DNA of 64,000 nucleotides from Scenedesmus sp. PABB004 (taxonomy: Eukaryota), in NCBI GenBank assembly GCA_014905635.1, contig JABVCE010000017.1, positions 62,001 to 126,000 of the forward strand, given 5' to 3'. A program made the position numbers and the translations under genes. Below the pieces are notes generated by a model. The model searched no databases and was not told the origin of the DNA. It worked only from the letters and a program-made list of their open reading frames with translations. Shown here piece after piece: positions 11,973 through 64,000 of the stretch (the stretch's first letter is position 1; the number at the start of each line of letters is the position of its first letter).

Positions 11973-14496
11973 GCGTGCCGGCAGACCGCTGGTCGTCGCG
12001 CGCGTCGAACCGCGGCTCTGTGACTGCTGCGACTGCAGGGGCGCCTCCGCCAACGCCTCCGACACCGCACACACGCGCCCGCCGCTCCAGCTCGCCACCG
12101 CTCCAGCGCGGCACCTTGCAGCGCGGCACGGCGAGCGCGGCGGCACAGCAGCAGCAGCAGCGGCGGCGCGGTGCGATGTGGCGGCGCGCCGACCAGGCTC
12201 CACCAGGGGGCGACCCGGCCCCGGCCCATCGTTGGGCTCCCACCGACGGCGGCAGCGGTGGCGGCGCGGGCGACCCCGGGCGCGGCGGCGGTCTCGCGTC
12301 AGGCGGGCCGCGGCACGAGGGCGGTTGGCCGCGGGACGGCAGGGCCGACTGCCCGGACTGGCGGCGGGGGGCAGCGCCGCCGGACGACGGCTTGGACTGG
12401 CGGCGCAGAGCAGCAGCGCCTGGCGCCGGCGGCCAGGTGCGTGTGCGTGGTCGCGCGCAGGGGCAGCCGGCGCGTGCCGACCCTGACGCTGTGCTCGGCG
12501 GCCTGCGCAGGTCCGCGGCGCGCTCATGGCGGCCATGAAGGAAGCCGCCACCCTCGCGGAGCTGCAGCAGCTGGTGGAGCACGCGGGCAGCCTCGACCAC
12601 ATCCACCTGGCGGCGACCGCCACGCAGCTGGGCCAGTGGGTGCGGCGCGGCGTCATCCGCACCAGCGCCGACCAGGCCGCGGCGCAGCAGCTGCTGCGGC
12701 GCGTGGAGGAGCAGCTGCTGCAGCCGGCGCTCCTGCAGGCGTGCAACTGCCGGGGGCTGTCCAACGTGGTGTGGGCGGCCGGCGTGTGCGGCTACGACGG
12801 GCCGCTGCTCCGGACCTGCCTGGCGCGGCTCCTGGCCCCTGAGCAGCTGCGCGGCGCCAACGCCCAGGACCTGGCCAGCGCAGCGCACGGCGCGGCCACG
12901 GCTGGCGTGGCGCTGGAGCAGGGCGACGTGCAGCGGCTCCTGACGGCGCTGGAGCGGCAGCTGGGCGCGATCAAGCCCCAGGACGTGGCCAACACGCTGT
13001 GGGCGGTGGCTCGAATGGGTCGTGAGGTGCCGCAGCGGCAGCTGGAGCAGCTGCTGGCGGTGCTGGAGCAGCAGCTGCGCGTGGCCAAGCCTCAAGAGCT
13101 GGCCAACTCGCTGTGGGCGGTGGCCACCATGGGCTACGAGGTGCCGCAGGCACATCTGGAGCACCTGCTGGCAGCGCTGGAGCGCCAGCTGGGCGCAGCC
13201 AAGCCTCAAGAGCTGGCCAACACGCTGTGGGCGGTGGCCAAAATGGGCCGCGGAGTGCCGCGGCCACAGCTGGAGCAGCTGCTGGCGGCGCTGGAGCGGC
13301 AACTGGGTGCAGCCTCGCCCCAGGCTGTGTCCAACGTGCTGTGGGCGGTGGCGAGCATGGGCCGCGCAGTGCCGCAGCGGCAGCTTGAGCAGTTGCTGGC
13401 GGCGCTGGAGCGGCAGCCGGGCGCGGCCAAGCCCCAAGAGTTGGCCAGCACGCTGTGGGCGGTGGCCACCATGGGCTGCGAGGTGCCGCAGCCGCAGCTG
13501 GAGCACCTGCTGGCAGCGCTGGAGCGCCAGCTGGGCACGACCAAGCCCCAGGATGTGGCCAACACGCTGTGGGCGTGTGGGCAGCTGCGCCACCTGCCGT
13601 CCCAGCTGCTCGCGGCACTGGCGCAGCAGCCGGCTCAGCTGGAGCGGCTGCTGGCGGACAGCAGCGCTCAAGCCTTTGCCAACATTGCCCTGGCCTGCGC
13701 CCAGCTGGGCCACGCGGACGAGCGGCTGCTGGGCCCGCTGCTGCGGCGGGCGGTGACCCAGGTGCAGGCGGGCGCCAGCTGGTCAGGGCAGGATCTGGCC
13801 AACACCTGCTGGGCTGTGGCGGTGCTGGACCTGCAGCAGTGCGCAGGCGAGCTGGCGGTGCTGGCGCGCGCCGCCAGCGAGCAGTGGGGTCGCATGGCAC
13901 CTGAGAATCTGCGCCAGCTGCACCAGGTGCAGCTGTGGGCGACGGACTGCGGCCTGCATCTGCCGGGCGGCGGCGGGAGGCCGGGGCTGGCGAGCGCGCT
14001 GGCGCCGCAACAGCTGCAGGCCTGCCGCGCGGCGTGGGCGGCGGGGCTGGCGGCGAGGCAGAAGCAGCAGCCGAGCCGGTTTCAGCGCGAGGTGTTTGCC
14101 GCGCTGCAGCGCCTGCCGCTGAAGTGGGCGGCGCCGCCGGCGATGGAGCAGCTGGCGGCGCCGGACGGCGCCTGCCTGGTCGACATCACCGCCACGACGG
14201 CGAGCGGCGCGCGGCTGGCAGTGGAGGCGGACGGGCCCACGCACTTCAGGACGCCCGGCCGCGGCCTCATGGGGGAGACGCTGTTCAGGTGCGGGCGCTG
14301 CCGCGGCTGGGCTGCTCTGGCCAGCCCGCACTCGCGCGATTGCAAGCAGGCCCGCTCACACGCTGCCCGCCCGCCTGCCGTTGCTGCCGCCGCGCGCACA
14401 GGAACCGGGCTCTGGTGGCGCGGGGCTACGCGCTGGTGGTGGTGCCGTGGTTTGAGTGGGCAGAGCTGCGCAGCGGGGAGGAGCGGCAGCGCTGGC
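11973..14496 (+). repeat. Inverted duplication 1, right arm
   Basis: Reverse complement of ~5621-8134 with few differences, mostly near the ends. Confidence 0.92.
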
Positions 14497-46332: not shown

Positions 46333-49300
46333 GCAAGCCGGCGCAGAGCGTGTAGCGAGCATGGCGCGGCCTAGGTGCGCGCAACTCACCAGCAAACCCA
46401 CCTGCACGCCGCCCGCTGGTCTCGATCGCGCGCCGCCGCGCGCGCCAGCCGGGGGCCGTCCTCTCCACGCGGGCGACGGCGCGGGCGCGTGCCGGGCGCG
46501 TGCGCCGGAGCTGCGGCGCCGGCCGCGGGCCCCGCGCGCGCGCGGCGCGGCGGCCCGGCACGGCGGCGCGCGCCGCCGGCGGTGCCCGGCGGGCCTGCGC
46601 GTGGCAGCGCGCTGAGCGGCAGCGGGGGCCGTCCTCTCCACGCGGGCGACGGCGCGGGCGCGTGCCGGGCGCGTGCGCCGGAGCTGCGGCGCCGGCCGCG
46701 GGCCCGCGCGGCGCGCGGCGCGGCGGCCCGGCACGGCGGCGCGCGCCGCCGGCGCTGCCCGGCGGGCCTGCGCGTGGCAGCGCGCCGAGCGGCAGCGGGG
46801 GCCGTCCTCTCCACGCGGGCGACGGCGCGGGCGCGTGCCGGGCGCGTGCGCCGGAGCTGCGGCGCGGCCGCGGGCCCGGCGCGCGCGGCGCGGCGGCCGG
46901 CACGGCGGCGCGCGCCGCCGGCGCTGCCCGGCGGGCCTGCGCGTGGCAGCGCGCCGAGCGGCAGCGGGGCCGTCCTCTCCACGCGGGCGACGGCGCGGGC
47001 GCGTGCCGGGCGCGTGCGCCGGAGCTGCGGCGCCGGCCGCGGGCCCGCGCGCGCGCGGCGCGGCGGCCCGGCACGGCGGCGCGCGCCGCCGGCGGTGCCC
47101 GGCGGGCCTGCGCGTGGCAGCGCGCCGAGCGGCAGCGGGGGCCGTCCTGTCCACGCGGGCGACGGCGCGGGCGCGTGCCGGGCGCGTGCGCCGGAGCTGC
47201 GGCGCCGGCCGCGGGCCGCGCGCGCGCGCGGCGGCGGCCCGGCACGGCGGCGCGCGCCGCCGGCGGTGCCCGGCGGGCCTGCGCGTGGCAGCGCGCCGAG
47301 CGGCAGCGGGGGCCGTCCTCTCCACGCGGGCGACGGCGCGGGCGCGTGCCGGGCGCGTGCGCCGGAGCTGCGGCGCCGGCCGCGGGCCCCGCGCGCGCGG
47401 CGCGGCGGCCCGGCACGGCGGCGCGCGCCGCCGGCGGTGCCCGGCGGGCCTGCGCGTGGCAGCGCGCCGAGCGGCAGCGGGGGCCGTCCTCTCCACGCGG
47501 GCGACGGCGCGGGCGCGTGCCGGGCGCGTGCGCCGGAGCTGCGGCGCCGGCCGCGGGCCCGCGCGGCGCGCGGCGCGGCGGCCCGGCACGGCGGCGCGCG
47601 CCGCCGGCGGTGCCGGCGGGCCTGCGCGTGGCAGCGCGCCGAGCGGCAGCGGGGGCCGTCCTCTCACGCGGGCGACGGCGCGGCGCGGTGCCGGGCGCGT
47701 GCGCCGGAGCTGCGGGCGCCGGCCGGGCCCGCGCGCGCGCGGCGCGGCGGCCCGGCACGGCGGCGCGCGCCGCCGGCGGTGCCCGGCGGGCCTGCGCGTG
47801 GCAGCGCGCCGAGCGGCAGCGGGGGCCGTCCTCTCCACGCGGGCGACGGCGCGGGCGCGTGCCGGGCGCGTGCGCCGGAGCTGCGGCGCCGGCCGCGGGC
47901 CCGCGCGCGCGCGGCGCGGCGGCCCGCACGGCGGCCGCGCGCCGCCGGCGGTGCCCGGCGGGCCTGCGCGTGGCAGCGCGCTGAGCGGCAGCGGGGGCCG
48001 TCCTCTCCACGCGGGCGACGGCGCGGGCGCGTGCCGGGCGCGTGCGCCGGAGCTGCGGCGCCGCCGCGGGCCCGCGCGCGCGCGCGGCGCGGCGGCCCGG
48101 CACGGCGGCGCGCGCCGCCGGCGGTGCCCGGCGGGCTGCGCGTGGCAGCGCGCCGAGCGGCAGCGGGGGCCGTCCTGTCCACGCGGGCGACGGCGCGGGC
48201 GCGTGCCGGGCGCGTGCGCCGGAGCTGCGGCGCCGGCCGCGGGCCCGGCGCGCGCGGCGCGGCGGCCGGCACGGCGGCGCGCGCCGCCGGCGGTGCCCGG
48301 CGGGCCTGCGCGTGGCAGCGCGCTGAGCGGCAGCGGGGCCGTCCTCTCCACGCGGGCGACGGCGCGGGCGCGTGCCGGGCGCGTGCGCCGGAGCTGCGGC
48401 GCCGGCCGCGGGCCCGCGCGCCGCGCGGCGCGGCGGCCCGGCACGGCGGCGCGCGCGCGCCGGCGGTGCCCGGCGGGCCTGCGCGTGGCAGCGCGCCGAG
48501 CGGCAGCGGGGCCGTCCTGTCCACGCGGGCGACGGCGCGGGCGCGTGCCGGGCGCGTGCGCCGGAGCTGCGGCGCCGGCCGCGGGCCCGCGCGCGCGGCG
48601 GCGCGGCGGCCCAGGCACGGCGGCGCGCGCCGCCGGCGGTGCCCGGCGGGCCTGCGCGTGGCAGCCGCTGAGCGGCAGCGGGGGCCGTCCTCTCCACGCG
48701 GGCGCGACGGCGCGGGCGCGTGCCGGGCGCGCGTGCGCCGGCTGCGGCGCGCGGCCGGGGCCCGCGCGCGCGCGGCGCGGCGGCCCCGGCACGGCGGCGC
48801 GCCCGCCGGCGGTGCCCGGCGGGCCTGCGCGTGGCAGCGCGCTGAGCGGCAGCGGGGGCCGTCCTCTCCACGCGGCGACGGCGCGGGCGCGTGCCGGGCG
48901 CGTGCGCCGGAGCTGCGGCGCGGCCGCGGGCCCGCGCGCGCGCGGCGCGGCGGCCCAGCACGGCGGCGCGCGCCGCCGGCGGTGCCCGGCGGGCCTGCGC
49001 GTGGCAGCGCGCTGAGCGGCAGCGGGGGCCGTCCTCTCCACGCGGGCGACGGCGCGGGCGCGTGCCGGGCGCGTGCGCCGGAGCTGCGGCGCCGGCCGCG
49101 GGCCCGCGCGCGCGCGGGCGCGCGGCCCGGCACGGCGGCGCGCGCCGCCGGCGCGGTGCCCGGCGGGCCTGCGCGTGGCAGCGCGCTGAGCGGCAGCGGG
49201 GCCGTCCTCTCCACGCGGGCGACGGCGCGGGCGCGTGCCGGGCGCGTGCGCCGGAGCTGCGGCGCCGGCCGCGGGGCCCGCGCGCGCGCGGCGCGGCGGC

Positions 49301-52300
49301 CCAGCACGGCGGCGCGCGCCGCCGGCGGTGCCCGGCGGGCCTCGCGTGGCAGCGCGCCGAGCGGCAGCGGGGGCCGTCCTCTCCACGCGGGGCGACGGCG
49401 CGGCGCCGTGCCGGGCGCGTGCGCCGGAGCTGCGGCGCCGGCCGCGGGCCGCGCGCGCGCGGCGCGGCGGCGGCCCAGCACGGCGGCGCGCGCCGCCGGC
49501 GGTGCCCGGCGGGCTGCGCGTGGCAGCGCGCTGAGCGGCAGCGGGGGCCGTCCTCTCCACGCGGCGACGGCGCGGGCGCGTGCGGGCGCGTGCGCCGGAG
49601 CTGCGGCGCCGGCCGCGGGCCCGCGCGCGCGCGCGCGGCGGCGGCCCAGCACGGCGGCGCGCGCCGCCGGCGGTGCCCGGCGGGCCTGCGCGTGGCAGCG
49701 CGCTGAGCGGCAGCGGGGGCCGTCCTCTCCACGCGGGCGACGGCGCGGGCGCGTGCCGGGCGGTGCGCCGGAGCTGCGGCGCCGGCCGCGGGCCCGCGCG
49801 CGCGCGGCGCGGCGGCCCGGCACGGCGGCGCGCGCCGCCGGCGGTGCCCGGCGGGCCTGCGCGTGGCAGCGCGCTGAGCGGCAGCGGGGGCCGTCCTCTC
49901 CACGCGGGCGACGGCGCGGGCGCGTGCCGGGCGCGTGCGCCGGAGCTGCGGCGCCGGCCGCGGGCCCCGCGCGCGCGGCGCGGCGGCCCAGCACGGCGGC
50001 GCGCGCCGCCGGCGGTGCCCGGCGGGCCTGCGCGTGGCAGCGCGCTGAGCGGCAGCGGGGGCCGTCCTCTCCACGCGGGCGACGGCGCGGGCGCGTGCCG
50101 GGCGCGTGCGCCGGAGCTGCGGCGCCGGCCGCGGGCCCGCGCGCGCGCGCGCGGCGGCCCAGCACGGCGGCGCGCGCCGCCGGGTGCCGGCGGGCCTGCG
50201 CGTGGCAGCGCGCTGAGCGGCAGCGGGGGCCGTCCTCTCCACGCGGGCGACGGCGCGGGCGCGTGCCGGGCGCGTGCGCCGGAGCTGCGGCGCCGGCCGC
50301 GGGCCCGCGCGCGCGCGGCGCGGCGGCCCAGCACGGCGGCGCGCGCCGCCGGCGGTGCCCGGCGGGCCTGCGCGTGGCAGCGCGCTGAGCGGCAGCGGGG
50401 GCCGTCCTCTCCACGCGGGCGACGGCGCGGGGCGCGTGCCGGGCGCGTGCGCCGGAGCTGCGGCGCCGGCCGCGGCCCGCGCGCGCGCGGCGCGGCGGCC
50501 CGGCACGGCGGCGCGCGCCGCCGGCGGTGCCCGGCGGGCCTGCGCGTGGCAGCGCGCTGAGCGGCAGCGGGGGCCGTCCTCTCCACGCGGGCGACGGCGC
50601 GGGCGCGTGCCGGGGCGCGTGCGCCGGAGCTGCGGCGCCGGCCGCGGGCCCGCGGCGCGCGGCGCGGCGGCCCAGCACGGCGGCGCGCGCCGCCGGCGGT
50701 GCCCGGCGGGCCTGCGCGTGGCAGCGCGCTGAGCGGCAGCGGGGGCCGTCCTCTCCACGCGGGCGACGGCGCGGGCGCGTGCCGGGCGCGTGCGCCGGAG
50801 CTGCGGCGCCGGCCGCGGCCCGCGCGCGCGCGGCGCGGCGGCCCGGCACGGCGGCGCGCGCCGCCGGCGGTGCCCGGCGGGCCTGCGCGTGGCAGCGCGC
50901 TGAGCGGCAGCGGGGGCCGTCCTCTCCACGCGGGCGACGGCGCGGGCGCGTGCCGGGCGCGTGCGCCGGAGCTGCGGCGCCGGCCGCGGGCCCGCGCGCG
51001 CGCGGCGCGGCGGCCCAGCACGCGGCGGCGCGCGCCGGCGGTGCCCGGCGGGCCTGCGCGTGGCAGCGCGCTGAGCGGCAGCGGGGGCCGTCCTCTCCAC
51101 GCGGGCGACGGCGCGGGCGCGTGCCGGGCGCGTGCGCCGGAGCTGCGGCGCCGGCCGCGGGCCCGCGCGCGCGCGCGGCGGCGGCGGCCCGGCACGGCGG
51201 CGCGCGCCGCCGGCGGTGCCCGGCGGGCCTGCGCGTGGCAGCGCGCTGAGCGGCAGCGGGGGCCGTCCTCTCCACGCGGGCGACGGCGCGGGCGCGTGCC
51301 GGGCGCGTGCGCCGGAGCTGCGGCGCCGGCCGCGGGCCGCGCGCGCGCGGCGGCGCGGCGGCCCGGCACGGCGGCGCGCGCCGCCGGCGGTGCCGGCGGG
51401 CCTGCGCGTGGCAGCGCGCTGAGCGGCAGCGGGGGCCGTCCTCTCCACGCGGGCGACGGCGCGGGCGCGTGCCGGGCGCGTGCGCCGGAGCTGCGGCGCG
51501 GCCGCGGGCCCGCGCGCGCGCGGCGCGGCGGCCCAGCACGGCGGCGCGCGCCGCCGGCGGTGCCCGGCGGGCCTGCGCGTGGCAGCGCGCTGAGCGGCAG
51601 CGGGGGCCGTCCTCTCCACGCGGGCGACGGCGCGGGCGCGTGCCGGCGCGTGCGCCGGAGCTGCGGCGCCGGCCGCGGGCCGCGCGCGCGCGGCGCGGCG
51701 GCCCAGCACGGCGGCGCGCGCCGCCGGCGGTGCCCGGCGGGCCTGCGCGTGGCAGCGCGCTGAGCGGCAGCGGGGGCCGTCCTCTCCACGCGGCGACGGC
51801 GCGGGCGCGTGCCGGGCGCGTGCGCCGGAGCTGCGGCGCCGGCCGCGGGCCCGCGCGCGCGCGGCGCGGCGGCCCGGCACGGCGGCGCGCGCCGCGGCGG
51901 TGCCCGGCGGGCCTGCGCGTGGCAGCGCGCTGAGCGGCAGCGGGGGCCGTCCTCTCCACGCGGGCGACGGCGCGGGCGCGTGCCGGGCGCGTGCGCCGGA
52001 GCTGCGGCGCCGGCCGCGGGCCCGCGCGCGCGCGCGGCGGCGGCCCGCGGCACGGCGGCGCGCGCCGCCGGCGGTGCCCGGCGGGCCTGCGCGTGGCAGC
52101 GCGCTGAGCGGCAGCGGGGGCCGTCCTCTCCACGCGGGCGACGGCGCGGGCGCGTGCCGGGCGCGTGCGCCGGAGCTGCGGCGCCGGCCGGGGCCCGCGC
52201 GCGGCGGCGCGGCGGCCCGGCACGGCGGCGCGCGCCGCCGGCGGTGCCCGGCGGGCCTGCGCGTGGCAGCGCGCTGAGCGGCAGCGGGGGCCGTCCTCTC

Positions 52301-55300
52301 CACGCGGGCGACGGCGCGGGCGCGTGCCGGGCGCGTGCGCCGGAGCTGCGGCGCCGGCCGCGGGCCCCCGCGCGCGCGCGGCGCGGCGGCCCGGCACGGC
52401 GGCGCGCGCCGCCGGCGGTGCCCGGCGGGCCTGCGCGTGGCAGCGCGCTGAGCGGCAGCGGGGGCCGTCCTCTCCACGCGGGCGACGGCGCGGGCGCGTG
52501 CCGGGCGCGTGCGCCGGAGCTGCGGCGCGGCCGCGGGCCCGCGCGCGCGCGGCGCGGCGGCCCAGCACGGCGGCGCGCCCGCCGGCGGTGCCCGGCGGGC
52601 CTGCGCGTGGCAGCGCGCTGAGCGGCAGCGGGGGCCGTCCTCTCCACGCGGGCGACGGCGCGGGCGCGTGCCGGCGCGTGCGCCGGAGCTGCGGCGCCGG
52701 CCGCGGCCCGGCGCCGCGGCGGCGCGGCGGCCCAGCACGGCGGCGCGCGCGCCGCCGGCGGTGCCCGGCGGGCCTGCGCGTGGCAGCAGCGCGCTGAGCG
52801 GCAGCGGGGGCCGTCCTCTCCACGCGGGCGACGGCGCGGGCGCGTGCCGGGCGCGTGCGCCGGAGCTGCGGCGCCGGCCGCGGGCCCGCGCGCGCGCGGC
52901 GCGGCGGCCCAGCACGGCGGCGCGCGCCGCCGCGGTGCCCGGCGGGCCTGCGCGTGGCAGCGCGCTGAGCGGCAGCGGGGGCCGTCCTCTCCACGCGGGC
53001 GACGGCGCGGGCGCGTGCCGGCGCGTGCGCCGGAGCTGCGGCGCGGCCGCGGGCCCGCGCGCGCGCGGCGCGGCGGCCCGGCACGGCGGCGCGCGCCGCC
53101 GGCGGTGCCCGGCGGGCCTGCGCGTGGCAGCGCGCTGAGCGGCAGCGGGGGCCGTCCTCTCCACGCGGGCGACGGCGCGGGCGCGTGCCGGGCGCGTGCG
53201 CCGGAGCTGCGGCGCCGGCCGCGGGCCGCGCGCGCGCGGCGCGCGGCGGCCCAGCACGGCGGCGCGCGCCGCCGGCGGTGCCCGGCGGGCCTGCGCGTGG
53301 CAGCGCGCTGAGCGGCAGCGGGGGCCGTCCTCTCCACGCGGGCGACGGCGCGGGGCGCGCCGGGCGCGTGCGCCGGAGCTGCGGCGCCGGCCGCGGGCCC
53401 GCGCGCGCGCGCGGCGCGGCGGCCCAGCACGGCGGCGCGCGCCGCCGGCGGTGCCCGGCGGGCCTGCGCGTGGCAGCGCGCTGAGCGGCAGCGGGGGCCG
53501 TCCTCTCCACGCGGGCGACGGCGCGGGCGCGTGCCGGGCGCGTGCGCCGGAGCTGCGGCGCCGGCCGCGGGCCGCGGCGCGCGCGGCGCGGCGGCCCAGC
53601 ACGGCGGCGCGCGCCGCGCGCCGCCGGCGGTGCCCGGCGGGCCTGCGCGTGCAGCGCGCTGAGCGCAGCGGGGGCCGTCCTCTCCACGCGGGCGACGGCG
53701 CGGGCGCGTGCGGGCGCGTGCGCCGGAGCTGCGGCGCCGGCCGCGGCCCGCGCGCGCGGGCGCGGCGGCCCGGCACGGCGCGCGCGCCGCCGGCGGTGCC
53801 CGGCGGGCCTGCGCGTGGCAGCGCGCTGAGCGGCAGCGGGGGCCGTCCTCTCCACGCGGGCGACGGCGCGGGCGCGTGCCGGGCGCGTGCGCCGGAGCTG
53901 CGGCGCCGGCCGCGGGCCCGCGCGCGCGCGGCGCGGCGGCCCAGCACGGCGGCGCGCGCCGCCGGCGGTGCCCGGCGGGCCTGCGCGTGGCAGCGCGCTG
54001 AGCGGCAGCGGGGGCCGTCCTCTCCACGCGGGCGACGGCGCGGGCGCGTGCCGGGCGCGTGCGCCGGAGCTGCGGCGCCGGCCGCGGGCCCGCGCGCGCG
54101 GGCGGCGGCCCAGGCACGGCGGCGCGCGCCGCCGGCGGTGCCCGGCGGGCCTGCGCGTGGCAGCGCGCTGAGCGGCAGCGGGGCCGTCCTCTCCACGCGG
54201 GCGACGGCGCGGGCGCGTGCCGGGCGCGTGCGCCGGAGCTGCGGCGCCGGCCGCGGGCCCGCGCGCGCGCGGCGCGGCGGCCCAGCACGGCGGCGCGCGC
54301 CGCCGGCGGTGCCCGGCGGGCCTGCGCGTGGCAGCGCGCTGAGCGGCAGCGGGGGCCGTCCTCTCCACGCGGGCGACGGCGCGGGCGCGTGCCGGGCGCG
54401 TGCGCCGGAGCTGCGGCGCCGGCGGCCCGCGCGCGCGCGGCGCGGCGGCCAGCACGGCGGCGCGCGCCGCCGGCGGTGCCCGGCGGGCCTGCGCGTGGCA
54501 GCGCGCTGACGGCAGCGGGGCCGTCCTCTCCACGCGGGCGACGGCGCGGGCGCGTGCCGGCGCGTGCGCGGAGCTGCGGCGCCGGCCGCGGGCCCGCGCG
54601 CGCGCGGCGCGGCGGCCCAGCACGGCGGCGCGCGCCGCCGGCGGTGCCCGGCGGGCCTGCGCGTGGCAGCGCGCTGAGCGGCAGCGGGGGCCGTCCTCTC
54701 CACGCGGGCGACGGCGCCGGGCGCGTGCCGGGCGCGTGCGCCGGAGCTGCGGCGCCGGCCGCGGGCCCGCGCGCCGCGCGGCGCGGCGGCCCGCACGGCG
54801 GCGCGCGCCGCCGGCGGTGCCCGGCGGGCCTGCGCGTGGCAGCGCGCTGAGCGGCAGCGGGGGCCGTCCTCTCCACGCGGGCGACGGCGCGGGGCGCGTG
54901 CCGGGCGCGTGCGCCGGAGCTGCGGCGCCGGCCGCGGGCCCGCGCGCGCCGGCGCGGCGGCCGCACGGCGGCGCGCGCCGCCGGCGGTGCCCGGCGGGCC
55001 TGCGCGTGGCAGCGCGCTGAGCGGCAGCGGGGGCCGTCCTCTCCACGCGGGCGACGGCGCGGGCGCGTGCCGGGCGCGTGCGCCGGAGCTGCGGCGCCGC
55101 CGCGGGCCCGCGCGCGCGCGGCGCGGCGGCCAGCACGGCGGCGCGCGCGCCGCCGGCGGTGCCCGGCGGGCCTGCGCGTGGCAGCGCGCTGAGCGGCAGC
55201 GGGGGCCGTCCTCTCCACGCGGGCGACGGCGCGGGCGCGTGCCGGGCGCGTGCGCCGGAGCTGCGGCGCCGGCCGCGGGCCCGGCGCGCGCGGCGCGGCG

Positions 55301-56222
55301 GCCCACACGGCGGCGCGCGCCGCGGCGTGCCCGGCGGGCCTGGCGCGTGCAGCGGCGCTGAGCGGCAGCGGGGGCCGTCCTCTCCACGCGGGCGACGGCG
55401 CGGGCGCGTGCCGGGCGCGTGCGCCGGAGCTGCGGCGCCGGCCGCGGGCCCGCGCGCGCGCGGCGCGGCGGCCCAGCACGGCGGCGCGCGCCGCCGGCGG
55501 TGCCCGGCGGGCCTGCGCGTGGCAGCGCGCTGAGCGGCAGCGGGGGCCGTCCTCTCCACGCGGGCGACGGCGCGGGCGCGTGCCGGGCGCGTGCGCCGGA
55601 GCTGCGGCGCCGGCCGCGGGCCCGCCGCGCGCGCGGCGCGGCGGCCCGGCACGGCGGCGCGCGCCGCCGGCGGTGCCCGGCGGGCCTGCGCGTGGCAGCG
55701 CCTGAGCGGCAGCGGGGGCCGTCCTCTCCACGCGGGCGACGGCGCGGGCGCGTGCCGGGCGCGTGCGCCGGAGCTGCGGCGCCGGCCGCGGGCCCCGCGC
55801 GCGCGCGGCGCGGCGGCCCAGCACGGCGGCGCGCGCCGCCGGCGGTGCCCGGCGGGCCTGCGCGTGGCAGCGCGCCGAGCGGCAGCGGGGGCCGTCCTCT
55901 CCACGCGGGCGACGGCGCGGGCGCGTGCCGGGCGCGTGCGCCGGAGCTGCGGCGCCGGCCGCGGGCCCGCGCGCCGCGCGGCGCGGCGGCCCGGCACGGC
56001 GGCGCGCGCCGCCGGCGGTGCCCGGCGGGCCTGCGCGTGGCAGCGCGCTGAGCGGGCAGCGGGGGCCGTCCTCTCCACGCGGGCGACGGCGCGGGCGCGT
56101 GCCGGGCGCGTGCGCCGGAGCTGCGGCGCCGGCCGCGGGCCCGCGCGCGCGCGGCGCGGCGGCCCGGCACGGCGGCGCGCGCCGCCGGCGGTGCCCGGCG
56201 GGCCTGCGCGTGGCAGCGCGCT

Positions 56223-56294
56223 TTCAATGGGCTGCCCCTGGGCCTCGGTCCTTGTCTGGTCACCCGTTGTAACAAAAAAAAAAAAAAAAAAAAA
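56223..56294 (+). mobile_element. Ultra-short LINE 3'-end insertion with poly(A)
   Basis: Last ~50 nt of the LINE plus A21. TSD AGCGCGCT. Confidence 0.9.
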
Positions 56295-56380
56295 GCGCGC
56301 TGAGCGGCAGCGGGGGCCGTCCTCTCCACGCGGGCGACGGCGCGGGCGCGTGCCGGGCGCGTGCGCCGGAGCTTCGGCGC

Positions 56381-56455
56381 TTTTTTCAGTGGGCTGCCCC
56401 TGGGCCTCGGTCCTTGTTTGGTCACCCATTGTAACAAAAAAAAAAAAAAAAAAAA
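56381..56455 (+). mobile_element. Ultra-short LINE 3'-end insertion with poly(A)
   Basis: Last ~55 nt plus A20. TSD AGCT(T/G)CGGCGC. Confidence 0.9.
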
Positions 56456-57091
56456 GCTGCGGCGCCGGCCGCGGGCCCGCGCGCGCGCGGCGCGGCGGCC
56501 CAGCACGGCGGCGCGCGCCGCCGGCGGTGCCCGGCGGGCCTGCGCGTGGCAGCGCGCTGAGCGGCAGCGGGGCCGTCCTCTCCACGCGGGGCGACGGCGC
56601 GGGCGCGTGCCGGGCGCGTGCGCCGGAGCTGCGGCGGCCGCGGGCCGCGCGCGCGCGGCGCGGCGCCCGGCACGGCGGCGCGCGCCGCCGGCGGTGCCGG
56701 CGGGCCTGCGCGTGGCAGCGCGCTGAGCGGCAGCGGGGGCCGTCCTCTCCACGCGGGCGACGGCGCGGGCGCGTGCCGGGCGCGTGCGCCGGAGCTGCGG
56801 CGCCGGCCGCGGGCCCGCGCGCGCGCGGCGCGGCGGCCCGGCACGGCGGCGCGCGCCGCCGCGGTGCCCGGCGGGCCTGCGCGTGGCAGCGCGCTGAGCG
56901 GCAGCGGGGGCCGTCCTCTCCACGCGGGCGACGGCGCGCGGGCGCGTGCCGGGCGCGTGCGCCGGAGCTGCGGCGCCGGCCGCGGCCCGCGCCGCGCGCG
57001 GCGCGGCGGCCCAGCACGGCGGCGCGCCGCCGCCGGCGGTGCCCGGCGGGCCTGCGCGTGGCAGCGCGCTGAGCGGCAGCGGGGGCCGTCC

Positions 57092-60000
57092 AGCAGGCGG
57101 ACGCTCTGGAGGCGGTATGGGAAGAGTGCGGCGAGGGGCCCAGCCGCTGGTTCCACCGCCTGGGCCGCGCGCCGGGCGGCGCGCAGCAATTTCACGCGCT
57201 CGCCCGCCCGGGCCAGCCCGCCGTGCCGCTTACCTCCAGGGCAGGCGTCCAGGAGGGCGGCCGCATCATCGCCGACTTCTTCGACGCGGACGTGCCGGGC
57301 GGCATGTTCGGCGTCCGGCACCGACCGACCGCCAGCAGCAGGACTGCATGCTGGACGCGCTGGACCGGCAGCTCTCGGCAGCCGAGCAGCGGGCCTGCCG
57401 CGGGCAGGACCCCGTGGGGCTGCTCACGTTCGCCGAGGCGGCGGCGGCGCTGGACAGCCTGCCGCGCGGCGCGGCGCCGGGCAGCGACGGCCTCACCTGC
57501 GAGGCCTACGCGGCCCTGTGGGAGGTGCTGGGCGAGCCGCTCGTCCAAGCCTTCAACTATCACTACCTCAACCAGGCCGCCGGCGCGCCGCAGCTCGCGG
57601 CGACGCAGCGGCTCGGGCTCATCACGCTGATCCACAAGGGCGGCCAGCCGCGCGAGGCGGTCAGCAGCTACCGCCCCATCACGCTGCTCAACGCAGACAC
57701 CAAGATCGCAGCCAAGGCCATCGTGCAGCGGCTCGCGCCCGCGCTCGGCTCCATCGTCGACGGCACGCAGACGGCGTTTGTGCCGGGCCGGGACATCGCC
57801 GACAACGTGCTCATGCACCTGGAGGCGATCGACCACGCGCGCGAGACGCGCGCGCCGGGCTGCCTGCTGTTCCTCGACTTCGCCAAGGCCTACGACCGCC
57901 TCGACCGCGGCTGGCTGTTCAGGTGCCTCGCGCGCATGGGCCTGCCCGACGCAACCACGCGCTGGGTCCGCCTGCTGCTCGCAGGCACGCGGCGCGCGCG
58001 TCGCCTTCAACGGCGGCCATGTCAGCCGCGAGTTCAGCGTGGCGTCGGGCTGCGCGCAGGGCAGCCCGCTCAGCCCGCTGCTGTATGTGCTGGCGGCGCA
58101 GCCGCTGGCGGCCATGTGCCGGCGCGTGCAGCGGCAGCCCGGTTTTGCCAGCCTGCGCTGCCCGGCGGCGCAGGGCCGGCGCCCTGCTGCCACCAGCACG
58201 CAGACGACACCACCCTGCACGCAGCGTCAGTGGAGAGCGCCAAGCGGCTGCTGGACGGCGCCGTCGCGCCGTTCTGCCTGGCCAGCGGCGCGCAGCTCAA
58301 CCTGGCCAAGTGCAAGGGCATGCTGCTGGGCAACCACCCGGCGCTGCAGCTGCAGCCGGATGGCAGCGGGCAGCTGGTCGAGTGCAGCACGGGCGTGTGC
58401 TTCCCGGACACAGAGCAGGCGCCGATCAGGCACCTGGGCGTGCTGCTCTCTGCCACCGGCGTCGAGCGGCACGCGGCGCAGCTTTACCGCGAGCGGCTGC
58501 GCACCATCACCTGCCGCATCGCGCACTGGTCGCGGTACGCGCTCACGCGCGCCGGGCCGCCGGCACGTTGCGCGCCAGGTGCTCGCGGCCTGCGTGGGCT
58601 GGCACGCGCAGTTTGTGCCGGTGCCGGCCGACCTCCTGCGCCTCATCCAGCGGCGCGTCACCGCCTACATCGTCGGCAACTGGTGCATCCGCGAGAGCGA
58701 CAACCGCATTATCAGGCAGGTTCCGCGGGCGGCCATCGCGTGCCTGCCCGCGAGCATGGGCGGCGAGGCGCAGGTCGACGTCGCGGCCTTCACCACGGCA
58801 ATGCTGGCCAAGACGGCCGCCAGGCTGCTGCACCCGGTGGGGGCGGCCTGGAAGCCACCCGCGGCGGCGCGCTTCGCGCGCGCGTTGCCTGGCCGGGGCA
58901 CCGCCGCCCTCGTGCAGGGCACCGCGCTGGAGCTGCGGGCGCAGCTGCCGTGGCGGTGGGGCGCGATCGCCTGCGCGTTTGCGGCTCTCGGCGTGCACCG
59001 GGTGATCCCCCACGGCAGCATGACCGTGGAGCAGATCAGGGTTGAGGCCCTGGTGGGCAACTGCAGCGTCGGCGCGGCCCTGGGCGGCGCGCGCATCGCG
59101 TCGCTCGAGGACCTGCCCGCGGAGCTGCGCAGCGACAGCCTCGGGCAGGCGGCGCCGCGCCTGCCGTGGCGGCCGCCGCCGACGGCGTCGTCATGCCGGG
59201 TGAGTGGCAGCAGGCACTCGCGCGCAGCGGGCCGAGCGCGCCGGGTTGGCAGGCGCTGCGGCCCAGCGCGGCGCCGCCGTCGCCGGGCGGCGGCGTGGTG
59301 CAGCAGCCCCAGCAGCCGCTGGCGGCGCTGCCGGTGGAGCAGCCGCCGCAGCCGCCGCCGCCGCCGCCGCCCGCCGTGCGGTGGGTACGGCGGTGGGCGC
59401 TGGGCGCGGCAGCGGCGAGCTTCTTTTTTTTTTTTTTTTTGTTACAATGGGTGACTAGACAAGGACCGAGCCCAGGGCGGCGAGCTTCTTCGAGGTGGGG
59501 CCTGACAGCAGGCTCCGCACGCCGAGCCCCGCCCGAGATAGTCGCGGCGGGGGGTGGGAGGACTGCTGCGTGGTGGACGCGGCGCAGGCGCCGCGGCCAG
59601 CGGCGGGCGCGCAGCGCGCGGCGGCCGGAGCGCCCGGGCAGCGGCGCCGGCGGAGCAGCCGGAGATGCACAGCAGGGCGCGGCGATGGTGCCTCGTGGGC
59701 TTCTGGCCTGACGTCCGCGTCGACCCCTCCGTGTGGGGGCTTGGGCACGCGGCCACGGTCATGCAGTTTACGGTGCGCGGCGCGACCCTGCGGCTGCTGC
59801 AGCTGCGCTGCGCGCGCGAGGTCACGCCGGCAGGGGGCTGGACGCCCGGCGTTGGCTGCGTGCCGGGCCTCTGGCGCGCCGGCTACGGCCAGGCCTGCCC
59901 GGCCAGCGCCATCGCGCGGCGGGAGGCGGGCCAGAAGCGCAGCTGGGCGGAGCGGCAGCGAGCCGAGACGCCAGACCCGGAGCCTGGGCTGCCGGCGTGG

Positions 60001-60969
60001 CAGAAAGTCTCGCCCCCGCGGCGCCACGTCATGGAGCGCGTCGGGCCGGCGGCGGCCGCTGCCGCCGCGGCGCGGCGCGAGGAGCATGAGCAGCGGCGGG
60101 AGCAGCAGCTGGAGTAGCGCAGGACCCTGGTTCAGGAGCCGGCGGCCAACGACCTCGTCGACCCGCTCACTGGTGCGACTGCGCCGCGCGCGCCGGCGAG
60201 CGCGCGGAGCCGCCCGCCTGGGTCGCCTGCTACGCGCGCGCGCAGCAGGCGCGCATGCCGCGCGCCCTGCGACACTTTGGCTGGAGCCTGCTGCACGGCG
60301 GGGTGCGCGTCAGCGGCGACAGGGTCTTCTCTTACCAGCGCGCGGCGCCGGAGCTGGCGGAGCTGGCGTGCCCGCACCCGCTCTGCCGCGCGCAGCAGCA
60401 GCCGCCGCTGGAGACGCTCGGCCACGTCCTCGGCGGATGCCCCGTGGCGGCGGCGGTGCTGCAGTGGTTTGCTCACCTCTGGGCGCGGCTGCAGCCGGGC
60501 TTCCCGCGCGCCGCGCCCCGCCCAGGGTGATGCTGGCGGACGACTTTGCCAGGTCGGGCGTCGCGCCGGAGCTGCAGCAGCTCTGGACGCACCTCCGCCT
60601 GCTGCTGCTGCGCGCCCTGCCTGCGCCGCGCGCGCGCGGCACGGCGGCGGCCAGCCCGGGCACGCGCCTGTGGCGGCGATTCGCATCTTCGTGTACTCGG
60701 TGCGCGACGCAGTCGTGCTGGATTGGCGTAAGGCAGCGATGGACGTGCGCGCGCTGGCGGGCGTGCCGCGCTCCTGGCTGTCGGGCTCCGGCAAGGAGCT
60801 CACTCGGGCAGATTTCGAACGCCGGTGGTGCCACCGAGGGGTCATCGCGCGCACGGGCCAGCACGGGGGCCGCTTCACAATGGAGTTCCGGCTCACCGCA
60901 GCGGGCGTGCGGGCTGCCGGCGCTGCCGGCGCCGGCGCGGCGCTGGCCCCGCCGGCGGCGCAGGACCCC

Positions 60970-61003
<34 letters not shown>

Positions 61004-61736
61004 AGCGCGGCGGCTAGCTGCAGGGGCCGGGGGGTCCGCGGCCGGGCTTGCTGCGACCCCGGCTGGCTGCGTGTCGCGCCTCTTCTGCAGCGTGCAAGGT
61101 TGGGCGGTGTCCGCCCGTGCCGCGGGGCTGGTGTCTGCGTGTTGGCGTCGCGCGGCGAGGGGGCTGCTGCCGATGGGGCCGGCCCCTGGCACCGCCGGCG
61201 TGTTTGGCGGCTGCACGCGCTCCGTGCGCGGCGGCTTGGCGTGCTGCCTGCCCGGTGGGGCGGCTTTCTCATCGGTGCGCGGCTTTCTCAGGGGTTTTTG
61301 CAGCAAAGCCAACTGTTGCCCCCTGGTGTGTGCGTGTGTCGTCGCGCGGCGCGGGGGCTGATGCCGCTGAGGCCGGCCCCTGCCGCCGCCAGCGTGGATG
61401 GCGTTTGCGCGTGATCTCTGCGCGGAGGCTTGGGGCCGGTGCACCTCGCTGCACCGATGCCCGGTGCGGCTCGCCGCACCGGAAGGGGGGTGTGCGGCCT
61501 GATTTGCTGCTGCCCCTTTGATTGCGGGGCATCACCTGGTCTCCTTGGGCGCCCGTTGGGCGTTGGCCTCTGGCTGTGCCGTTGGGTGATGTGTGTGCCC
61601 CCTCTCGGGGGGCGCCGGGGCGCGGTTTTTCACGAGGGGTTGCTGCGCTCTTCCCGTTGGAGCTTTTTTCAATGGGCTGCCCCTGGGCCTCGGTCCTTGT
61701 CTGGTCACCCATTGTAAAAAAAAAAAAAAAAAAAAA
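57092..61736 (+). mobile_element. 5'-truncated L1-clade non-LTR retrotransposon (RT + C-terminal zinc finger, frameshifted), 3'UTR and poly(A)
   Basis: WEECGEGPSRWFHR, APGSDGL, ITLIHKG..YRPITLLNADTKI, QTAFVPGRDIADN, LDFAKAYDRL, GCAQGSPLSPLLY, QHADDTT, LNLAKC, RHLGV, WSLLHG, CPHPLC..ETLGHVLGGCP. Stop at 61017, then TGT+A21 tail. No endonuclease or ORF1 present. Confidence 0.93.
59424..59476 (-). mobile_element. Antisense ultra-short LINE tail nested in the LINE
   Basis: T17-GTTACAATGGGTGAC... TSD GCGGCGAGCTTCTT. Confidence 0.9.
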
Positions 61737-61761
61737 GCGCGCTGAGCGGCAGCGGGGGCCG

Positions 61762-61827
61762 TTTTTTTTTTTTTTTTGTTACAATGGGTGACCAGACAAG
61801 GACCGAGGCCCAGGGGCAGCCCACTGA
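61762..61827 (-). mobile_element. Antisense ultra-short LINE tail in satellite
   Basis: Poly(T)-GTTACAATGGG...CCCACTGA. TSD AGCGGGGGCCGT. Confidence 0.9.
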
Positions 61828-62540
61828 AGCGGGGGCCGTCCTCTCCACGCGGGCGACGGCGCGGGCGCGTGCCGGGCGCGTGCGCCGGAGCTGCGGCGCC
61901 GGCCGCGGGCCCGCGCGCGCGCGCGCGCGGCGGCCCGGCACGGCGGCGCGCGCCGCCGGCGGTGCCCGGCGGGCCTGCGCGTGGCAGCGCGCTGAGCGGC
62001 AGCGGGGGCCGTCCTCTCCACGCGGGCGACGGCGCGGGCGCGTGCCGGGCGCGTGCGCCGGAGCTGCGGCGCGGCCGCGGGCCGCGCGCGCGCGCGGCGC
62101 GGCGGCCCGGCACGGCGCGCCGGCGGCGCGCGCCGCCGCGTGCGGCGGGCCTGCGCGTGGCAGCGCGCTGAGCGGCAGCGGGGGCCGTCCTCTCCACGCG
62201 GGCGACGGCGCGGGCGCGTGCCGGGCGCGTGCGCCGGAGCTGCGGCGCCGGCCGCGGGCCCGCGCGCGCGCGGCGCGCGGCGGCCCGGCACGGCGGCGCG
62301 CGCCGCCGGCGGTGCCCGGCGGGCCTGCGCGTGGCAGCGCGCTGAGCGGCAGCGGGGGCCGTCCTCTCCACGCGGGCGACGGCGCGGGCGCGTGCCGGGC
62401 GCGTGCGCCGGAGCTGCGGCGCCGGCCGCGGGCCCGCGCGCGCGCGGCGCGGCGGCCCGGCACGGCGGCGCGCGCCGCCGGCGGTGCCCGGCGGGCCTGC
62501 GCGTGGCAGCGCGCTGAGCGGCAGCGGGGGCCGTCCTCTC
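61828..62540. repeat. Continuation of the 172-bp satellite (~4 monomers)
   Basis: Same monomer and orientation as 46451-57091. Confidence 0.97.
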
Positions 62541-63441
62541 TTTTTTTTTTTTTTTTTTTGTTACAATGGGTGACCAGACAAGGACCGCGCTGGAGCTGCG
62601 GGCGCAGCTGCCGTGGCGGTGGGGCGCGATCGCCTGCGCGTTTGCGGCTCTCGGCGTGCACCGGGTGATCCCCCACGGCAGCATGACCGTGGAGCAGATC
62701 AGGGTGGAGGCCCTGGTTTTTTTTTGGTTTTTTTTTGTTACAACGGGTGACCAGACAAGGACCGAGGCCCAGGGGCAGCCCAAGGACCGAGGCCCTGGTG
62801 GGCAACTGCAGCGTCGGCGCGGCCCTGGGCGGCGCGCGCATCGCGTCGCTCGAGGACCTGCCCGCGGAGCTGCGCAGCGACAGCCTCGGGCAGGCGGCGC
62901 CGCGCCTGCCGTGGCGGCCGGCCGCCGACGGCGTCGTCATGCCGGGTGAGTGGCAGCAGGCACTCCGCGCGCAGCGGGCCGAGCGCGCCGGGTTGGCAGG
63001 CGCTGGGCCCAGCGCGGCGCCGCCGTCGCCGGGCGGCGGCGTGGTGCAGCAGCCCAGCAGCCGCTGGCGGCGCTGCCGGTGGAGCAGCCGCCGCAGCCCG
63101 CCGCCGCCGCCGCCCGCCGTGCGGTGGGTACGGCGGTGGGCGCTGGGCGCGGGCAGCGGCGAGCTTCTCAAGGTGGGCCTGACAGCAGGCTCCGCACCGC
63201 CGAGCCCCCGCCCGAGATAGTCGCGGCGGGGGGGTGGGAGGACTGCTGCGTGGTGGACGCGGCAGGCGCCGCGGCCAGCGGGCGGGCGCGCAGCGCGCGG
63301 CGGCCGGAGCGCCCGGGGCAGCGGCGCCGGCGGAGCAGCCGGAGATGCACAGCAGGGCGCGGCGATGGTGCCTCGTGGGCTTCTGGCCTGACGTCCGCGT
63401 CGACCCCTCCGTGTGGGGGTTTGGGCACGCGGCCACGGTCA
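62541..63441. mobile_element. Antisense LINE tail (62541-62587) fused to a sense internal LINE fragment (matches ~58921-59761)
   Basis: T19-GTTACAATGGGTGACCAGACAAGG-ACCG-CGCTGGAGCTG... The fragment lacks the 59424 insertion, so it is an independent copy. Confidence 0.88.
62717..62788 (-). mobile_element. Antisense ultra-short LINE tail nested in the second LINE fragment
   Basis: Interrupted poly(T) plus tail. TSD GAGGCCCTGGT. Confidence 0.88.
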
Positions 63442-64000
63442 TTTTGTTTTTTTTTTTATGTTACAATGGGTGACCAGACAAAGACCGAGGCCCAGGGGCA
63501 GCCCACTGAAAAAAACTCCAACGGGAAGAGCGCAGCAACCCCTCGTGAAAAACCGCGCCCCGGCGCCCCCCGAGAGGGGGCCCACACATCACCCAACGGC
63601 ACAGCCAGAGGCCAACGCCCAACGGGCGCCCAAGGAGACCAGGTGATGCCCCGCAATCAAAGGGGCAGCAGCAGATCAGGCCGCACACCCCCCTTCCGGT
63701 ACGGCGAGCCGCACCGGGCATCGGTGCAGCGAGGTGCACCGGCTCCAAGCCTCCGCGCAGAGATCACGCGCAAACGCCATCCACGCTGGCGGCGGCAGGG
63801 GCCGGCCTCAGCGGCATCAGCCCCCGCGCCGCGCGACGACACACGCACACACCAGGGGGCAGCAGTTGGCTTTGCTGCAAAAACCCCTGAGAAAGCCGCG
63901 CACCGACGAGAAAGCCGCCCCACCGGGCAGGCAGCACGCCAAGCCCGCCGCGCACGGAGCGCGTGCAGCCGCCAACACGCCGGCCGGCGCCAGGGGCCGG
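63442..64000 (-). mobile_element. Antisense LINE copy (3'UTR) running off the window end
   Basis: Reverse complement of ~61180-61715 preceded by degenerate poly(T). Confidence 0.92.

Follow-up and report, generated by a model that had tools for sequence, protein, structure and literature searches.

Short 3' tails of a Zepp-like LINE in Scenedesmus satellite clusters and a truncation hotspot 48-51 nt from the element's 3' end

Insertions of a LINE carried by the genome of the chlorophyte Scenedesmus sp. PABB004 stop with a sharp excess 48-51 nt from the 3' end of their parent element. We regard this truncation hotspot as very probably real; it rests on few events. The short tails that carry it are 5'-truncated products of an autonomous, poly(A)-tailed, Zepp-like LINE of the L1 type, made by ordinary target-primed reverse transcription; the LINE inserts into a 172-bp satellite and into copies of itself, and we put the probability of this reading at roughly 0.9. 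An element of this kind is already known; we found no comparable hotspot in the literature searched, which comprised titles and the openings of abstracts, with the original Zepp description and the ZeppL supplement outside its scope.

Results and Discussion

Short LINE tails in the window

The window is a 64,000-nt stretch of contig JABVCE010000017.1 (positions 62,001 to 126,000 of the forward strand; this contig is C10 below), and its features are listed in Table 1 by their position within it. A 27-nt pattern of the LINE tail matched the window eight times at three mismatches or fewer, against no match in 100 shuffles. Six of the eight sites are the tails named in the original prediction, whose A tails measure 17-22 nt; the other two terminate long copies (61717 on the plus strand and 63461 on the minus strand). 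All six tails had been taken for ultra-short insertions of 25-55 nt. Five of them are stand-alone insertions, with LINE parts of 51, 56, 36, 50 and 45 nt and thus a true range of 36-56 nt in the window, but the tail at 62541 turned out to be the 3' stub of a 5.3-kb composite.

The five target site duplications (TSDs), predicted at 8-14 bp, are all present, but they measure 6-8, 10-11 (with one mismatch), 12-14, 11-12 and 10-11 bp, so that the range is 6-14 bp and the first has six unambiguous bases. Each length is given as a range because of A/T ambiguity or microhomology at the ends. The TSDs, the A tails, the occurrence of both orientations and the distinct target sites bear out a target-primed origin. 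The claim that three of the tails truncate at nearly the same point was also upheld, since those of 51, 56 and 50 nt end at or just beyond the TTTTTTCA run. Short insertion 6 has at its 5' junction some 6 nt that were copied a second time from the LINE tail.

The left flank of the tail at 62541, GGCCGTCCTCTC (62529-62540), is found again at G000:C10:129818-129829, beyond the 5.3-kb composite and outside the window. Because this sequence recurs where the minus-strand copy rejoins the satellite, the tail is the end of the composite. The composite could be the outcome of 3' transduction or of nested insertion combined with recombination; neither a second copy of its junctions nor a source locus was found in 717 kb on 25 contigs.

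Table 1. Features of the LINE and the satellite in the window
Feature	Position in window	Strand	Description
172-bp satellite array, ~90% GC, ~60 copies	46442..57091	.	From TRF and composition; target of insertions 1 and 2 and of the long copy
Short insertion 1	56222..56294	+	Last 51 nt of the LINE (56222-56272) + 22-nt C/A tail; target 172-bp satellite
Insertion 1 TSD	56215-56222 and 56294-56301		(A)GCGCGC(T); 6 unambiguous bases only
Short insertion 2	56379..56455	+	Last 56 nt (56379-56434; 2-nt microhomology) + 21-nt tail; target satellite
Insertion 2 TSD	56370-56380 and 56455-56465		10-11 bp, one mismatch
5'-truncated 4.6-kb parent copy	57091..61736	+	RT and C-terminal part of ORF2, frameshifts
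Short insertion 3	59424..59477	-	Last 36 nt (59442-59477) + 18-nt tail; antisense in ORF2 of the long copy
Insertion 3 TSD	59412-59423 and 59477-59488		GCGGCGAGCTTC(TT)
Shared 3' end of all copies	61663..61717	+	U6-7 run 61664-61669, predicted stem, TGTAA
Short insertion 4	61762..61828	-	Last 50 nt (61779-61828) + 17-nt tail; target satellite
Insertion 4 TSD	61751-61761 and 61828-61838		AGCGGGGGCCG(T)
Four more satellite units	61828..62540	.	Between insertion 4 and the 62541 tail
27-nt tail (62561-62587) + 20-nt A tract	62541..62587	-	3' stub of the 5.3-kb composite
Internal ORF2 fragment of the LINE, 855 bp	62587..63441	+	Part of the composite
Short insertion 6	62717..62788	-	Last 45 nt (62738-62782) + interrupted 21-nt tail; within plus-strand LINE fragment
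Insertion 6 TSD	62707-62716 and 62789-62798		GAGGCCCTGG(T)
3' end of 4.3-kb LINE copy	63442..64000	-	Runs on to G000:C10:129821

The source element

The source of the tails is an autonomous L1-type LINE of about 8.5 kb in a GC-rich chlorophyte. Its long copy in the window has a 3' UTR from about 61018, TGTAA at 61713-61717, an A19 tail and an apparent TSD of 26-27 bp in the satellite; it gives a Pfam RVT_1 match and is 96% identical to intact ORF2 over 221 aa. Copies on other contigs reach about 3.9 kb further 5', which yields the full length (C70). ORF2 is intact in two copies (1670-1671 aa). The 1670-aa protein matches Exo_endo_phos (E 2.8e-7) and RVT_1 (E 5.8e-28) in Pfam, with the endonuclease N-terminal and of the APE type, and its C-terminal CCHC motif (C1460, C1465, H1478, C1483) is invariant across 18 aligned relatives. 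No RNase H domain was detected in the domain search of ORF2. Judged by its sequence, the element has the makeup of the L1 clade, namely a predicted APE endonuclease and RT, a CCHC motif, and TSDs with an A tail. Near-identical proteins carry a Scenedesmus label, and homologues are named TX1-like or LINE-1 ORF2 by their sources. Among other genera, the closest named RT relatives belong to Coccomyxa (L1 ORF2 proteins, 42-54% identical); among the matches listed for ORF2, none is named Zepp.

The element ends in TGTAA(C) followed by the A tract, so that the signal stands 0-1 nt before the tail. UGUAA is described as the chlorophyte poly(A) signal, peaking 17 nt ahead of the cleavage site (PMC1868727), and in 12 metagenomic relatives the spacing from UGUAA to the tail is 6-19 nt. 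The A tails are also narrow in length, with a median of 21 nt and 45 of 50 within 14-25. Narrow tails and an abutting TGTAA could reflect either a priming ruler or the handling of homopolymers in assembly.

Distribution of truncation lengths

Truncation lengths were compiled over 717 kb on 25 contigs, which hold 140 LINE 3' ends. TSD-bounded insertions were removed iteratively; 65 ends had a TSD, and the 75 without a detectable one, which are interrupted, lie at contig edges or have target deletions, were set aside. Dropping 13 segmental or tandem duplicates and two tandem copies left 50 independent insertions of 7-5211 nt, with matched flanks of 7-25 bp. Because the aligner had mis-scored a family polymorphism and a 1-nt deletion, we adjusted three lengths manually (44 to 51, 45 to 48 and 45 to 49). 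Without this correction, 48-51 nt contains six insertions and 43-51 nt still contains 11.

Abundant short 3' ends are expected for Zepp-like LINEs, and 18 of the 50 insertions are 60 nt or shorter. Within this short class, 11 insertions measure 43-51 nt and nine of them 48-51 nt, with none at 52-55 nt. Per base at risk, truncation occurs at a rate of 0.056 for 48-51 nt versus 0.003-0.009 in the bins 7-42, 43-47, 52-59 and 60-100, which places the hotspot 6- to 19-fold above the flanking bins. Outside the window's contig, seven of 44 insertions end at 48-51 nt. A smooth distribution across the genome, which the original prediction had named as the result that would speak against it, is thus not what we observed. 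The nine peak events lie at nine different target sites on seven contigs, and we therefore rejected the re-copying of one short insertion together with its satellite flank as their origin.

The peak could also be a small-sample or curation effect on a smooth, steep distribution, or a product of indel errors in a long-read assembly. The set holds only 50 events after 75 of 140 ends were set aside and three lengths hand-corrected, and a TSD inside a tandem satellite can be placed only modulo the monomer. In an unanchored 4-nt scan outside C10, P was 0.00015-0.005 under four smooth nulls and 0.043 under a log-uniform null; in a 9-nt scan it was 0.001-0.22, where 0.22 belongs to the log-uniform null. 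Against this explanation, the 48-56 nt interval was named beforehand and holds on other contigs: outside C10 it contains seven of 44 insertions where 1.1 are expected (P = 8e-5, log-uniform), and seven of the 18 insertions shorter than 100 nt (P = 9e-4, uniform). The peak events differ in target, and assembly errors would not be expected to yield precise LINE ends with TSDs on both strands. A LINE-satellite junction is also present in an unrelated freshwater metagenome (X2, below). We consider a fluctuation or an artifact improbable.

Two short insertions on C28, found later by eye, measure 42 and about 56-57 nt and lie outside the peak. Separately, a possible weaker cluster of 5' ends appears at 150-159 nt (C3:924491, C63, C77:10784, C23:441759 and C31:284392), and two of these are TSD-bounded.

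What sets the position of the hotspot

Peak junctions have a mean microhomology of 1.0 nt (n = 9) versus 2.8 nt for the others (n = 39; P = 0.02), in a comparison that omits two complex junctions. Microhomology was rejected as the cause of the peak, and the low value is what would be expected if the template, not the target, fixes the truncation position.

The template offers a matching landmark. A predicted terminal stem, in which CA(A/G)UGGG at 61670-61676 pairs with CCC(A/G)UUG at 61708-61714, makes a stem-loop of the last 48 nt, with its 5' base exactly at -48 and the U6-7 run directly upstream. Among 97 copies, the recurrent stem polymorphisms at -46, -9 and -7 keep the pairing through G-U, and those at -35, -17 and -12 fall in unpaired positions. 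Three out of three wobble-compatible transitions would occur by chance about one time in eight, by our estimate. Variants that break pairs occur at four stem positions, in one or two of the 97 copies each, and no two-sided compensatory change was found among these copies. The last 60 nt without the A tail fold no better than shuffles (z -0.1); values of z -1.7 to -2.9 came from windows that included poly(A), and we discarded them as support for the stem. The terminal stems of relatives varied, with z from -2.2 to +1.7 in 12 tails. The structured 3' element of the original prediction agrees with where the peak lies, at the base of the stem, but the structural evidence for it is weak.

Our preferred model, to which we give about even odds, is that ORF2p binds the predicted stem-loop from -48 to -4 and that the hotspot marks the edge of its footprint. 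The stem itself could not simply block the RT at -48, because its 3' arm would already have been copied by then. With ORF2p holding the stem-loop, the upstream RNA may be cleaved or degraded as far as the single-stranded U run before it is copied, and the RT would then run off the end of a protected piece of about 70 nt. Alternatively, the complex may release once the RT has copied the last base of the held element. The short cDNA would then be joined at the second nick with little microhomology. For R2, a working model outlined in PMC11331408 holds that templates may be 5'-truncated ahead of cDNA synthesis. A bolder extension, which we find quite doubtful, is that LINE RNA of any subfamily would yield an ORF2p-protected RNA of about 70 nt (terminal stem-loop and oligo-A) that is itself a competent template and hence a minimal retrotransposition unit. 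Inserted in either orientation, such units would scatter compact UGUAA signals through the centromeric satellite, and these could bring satellite transcripts to an end.

A strong RT stop, also raised in the original prediction, would place the cause in the U run rather than in a bound element. A plain stop at U runs is weakened by two other U5 runs, at -92..-88 and -423..-419, which have 0 of 28 and 0 of 17 truncations, though both are shorter than U6-7. In a fuller version, the RT pauses or falls off on full-length RNA in the U6-7 run ahead of a hairpin at -71 to -55, and the A-rich cDNA end, which cannot pair with a target of 90% GC, loses all but 0-3 A before it is joined. Hybrids of rU and dA are weak, and seven of the nine peak junctions contain 1-3 T of the U run. 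A few other ends lie just beyond the run (56 and 59), and just upstream the hairpin is predicted with 5 bp and a common C/T polymorphism at -55 that is wobble-compatible; low junction microhomology is also consistent with pausing. However, none of the 50 ends falls at 52-55, where the hybrid would be weakest. We see pausing as tenable, with the odds clearly against it.

In a third scenario, the new cDNA end at -48 complements its own start, snaps back and ends synthesis. The boundary of complementarity is identical (-48 to -50), snap-back junctions are described for R2 (PMC11331408), and a head-to-head tail palindrome of 44+44 nt lies at G000:C6:3699-3777. Yet each G-U pair in the RNA becomes a C-A mismatch in the cDNA, and the mismatch-free (A/A) haplotype makes up only two of eight typed peak copies, much as in long copies, where it accounts for 15 of the 70 that carry one of the four main haplotypes. 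A 7-bp hairpin should also not displace a 50-bp GC-rich hybrid, and ORF2 gave no match to an RNase H domain. Fold-back is therefore very improbable in our judgment.

The C6 region itself (G000:C6:3699-3815, L040) holds degenerate tail palindromes, the 44+44-nt one around GGGCAGCCC and a 16-nt one, which have no A tracts and lie outside the satellite.

The original prediction had further offered a tiny non-autonomous RNA, that is, a headless SINE with one or a few master loci, mobilised in trans. Lengths near 50 nt do recur, and a Chlamydomonas SINE with the 3' end of L1-1_CR is known (PMC3472496). But all four main 3' haplotypes occur among the 13 copies of 40-60 nt, in a ratio similar to that of long copies (3/3/2/2 in ten fully typed short copies versus 26/16/15/13 in long copies). 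Their 5' ends vary base by base and carry no flank along, and the TSD directly adjoins LINE sequence, with neither a Pol III-derived SINE head nor a master locus of its own in evidence. Shared haplotypes and ragged, headless 5' ends make a separate tiny master RNA extremely unlikely, and this idea is largely refuted.

At G000:C11:6345-6814 (L047 6328-6833), a 47-nt minus-strand tail and a 423-nt plus-strand tail stand head to head, each with an A tract, and take the place of about 10-12 bp from an older copy; no TSD is present. The arrangement looks like both nicks primed separate RNAs.

Satellite clusters and likely centromeres

Across the 40-Mb genome, the 26-nt tail pattern matches exactly at 109 places. 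LINE matches lie on 27 of 80 contigs, in a single region per contig, though most of these are contigs and not whole chromosomes. C1, which carries telomere repeats at either end, has a single LINE cluster in its interior. Telomere repeats occur at 0 of 24 cluster-side contig ends versus 5 of 12 far ends, and the clusters are therefore interior assembly breaks. The 171-172 bp satellite is present in 23 of 25 genome segments scanned, with subtype A on C1 and C10 and subtype B elsewhere, 77-80% alike over about 100 bp. The 50 independent insertions target satellite (23), the LINE itself (20), or other or mixed sequence (7), and 69 of the 140 LINE 3' ends are adjoined by LINE sequence. Short insertions were in places later amplified along with the satellite (five copies on C63). 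From this layout, the LINE-satellite clusters are probably centromeres, and the 172-bp repeat is a candidate centromeric satellite. This wider setting had escaped the original prediction. Green-algal centromeres are described as transposon-built, with two Chlorella genomes lacking a satellite (PMC11005252).

Several sites recur. Satellite B received five insertions of differing lengths at position ~6 on the minus strand (C11, C21, C31, C36 and C56), and position 164 of satellite A is common to two window insertions. These repeated sites reflect a target preference of the endonuclease. Insertions of 7 and 10 nt with an A tail and TSDs of 8-12 bp were seen at G000:C63:7569-14522 and C31:284232. 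Both are antisense at nearly the same site (~-150) of another copy, no more than 20 nt from the 5' junction of that host copy, and the C63 insertion pair was amplified fivefold within the satellite. A (GATAA)n/(GATAAA)n repeat ending in GATAGTTACACCA stands at LINE junctions (G000:C8:901711, C10:125461-126400, C24:18099 and C44:26979) and probably derives from the tail of a different retroelement within these clusters. Elsewhere in the window, 6533-7275 and 12932-13580 hold two arrays in opposite orientation, each with a period of 114 bp (38 codons), which we take to be OPR-like.

Metagenomes and relatives

Four metagenome runs include contigs with the LINE 3' UTR, in most cases at 95% identity or higher. 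A loose end at 61155 on a freshwater contig (X2) agrees with the C1 satellite subtype for 29 nt, as compared by eye, and LINE-satellite junctions therefore occur in wild populations. Contigs X1 and X2 both stop at 61662; we rejected these stops as evidence of truncation since they coincide with a common C/T polymorphism at 61663. The metagenome scan returned no stretch with the exact tail. Relatives were found at 79 loci, and the 12 tails examined are each single in their own locus and hence give no length distribution.

Comparison with known systems

Zepp and ZeppL are described as more than 8 kb at full length, with one cluster per chromosome that is nested and made mostly of 3' ends with frequent 5' truncation (PMC8226300, PMC3446292, bioRxiv 2025.03.28.645958), and ZeppL is reported to associate with CENH3 (bioRxiv 2025.03.28.645958). 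In the table of PMC3472496, L1-1_CR/ZeppL-1_cRei of Chlamydomonas reinhardtii and Zepp of Coccomyxa subellipsoidea C-169 are the only poly(A)-tailed green-algal L1 families. By description and layout, the Scenedesmus LINE behaves like Zepp: it shares the L1-type ORF2, the poly(A) tail, the length above 8 kb, the self-nesting, and one cluster per contig. In contrast to those accounts of Zepp and ZeppL, which mention neither a satellite target nor a single-base truncation hotspot, 23 of its 50 insertions lie in a 172-bp satellite, at preferred positions.

For UnaL2, ZfL2 and SART1, a terminal stem-loop in the last 50-80 nt is the proposed recognition element of the RT (PMC5135761, PMC3472496). 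The roughly 80 nt of 3' end shared by L1-1_CR and SINEX-3_CR are taken as stringent 3' recognition (PMC3472496), which has been demonstrated for other LINEs (PMC5135761). The Scenedesmus LINE resembles such stringent LINEs in its predicted terminal stem-loop within the last 50 nt. Their stems are described as backed by experiments, compensatory changes or a SINE partner, whereas here the backing is a truncation footprint and one-sided wobble.

Mammalian L1 makes TSDs of about 7-15 bp, has its A tail directly after the poly(A) signal, shows microhomology or extra bases at 5' junctions, and forms twin-priming-like and transduction-like composites. The Scenedesmus LINE shares all of these features. 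It is unlike mammalian L1 in its TGTAA signal, its short and uniform tails (median 21 nt), its GC-rich satellite targets, and the 18 of 50 insertions that are 60 nt or less.

Significance

The cause of 5' truncation in non-LTR retrotransposons is debated, with RT fall-off, template decay and host repair as candidates. A natural hotspot four bases wide, bordering a putative 3' recognition element, is a direct test of these causes, and it may reveal in vivo the smallest RNA on which an L1-type ORF2p depends. Should the peak fade as data accumulate, what is left is an ordinary Zepp-like cluster. The likely centromeres of this alga would consist of a 172-bp satellite and a Zepp-like LINE, in contrast to the satellite-free, transposon-built centromeres described in green algae.
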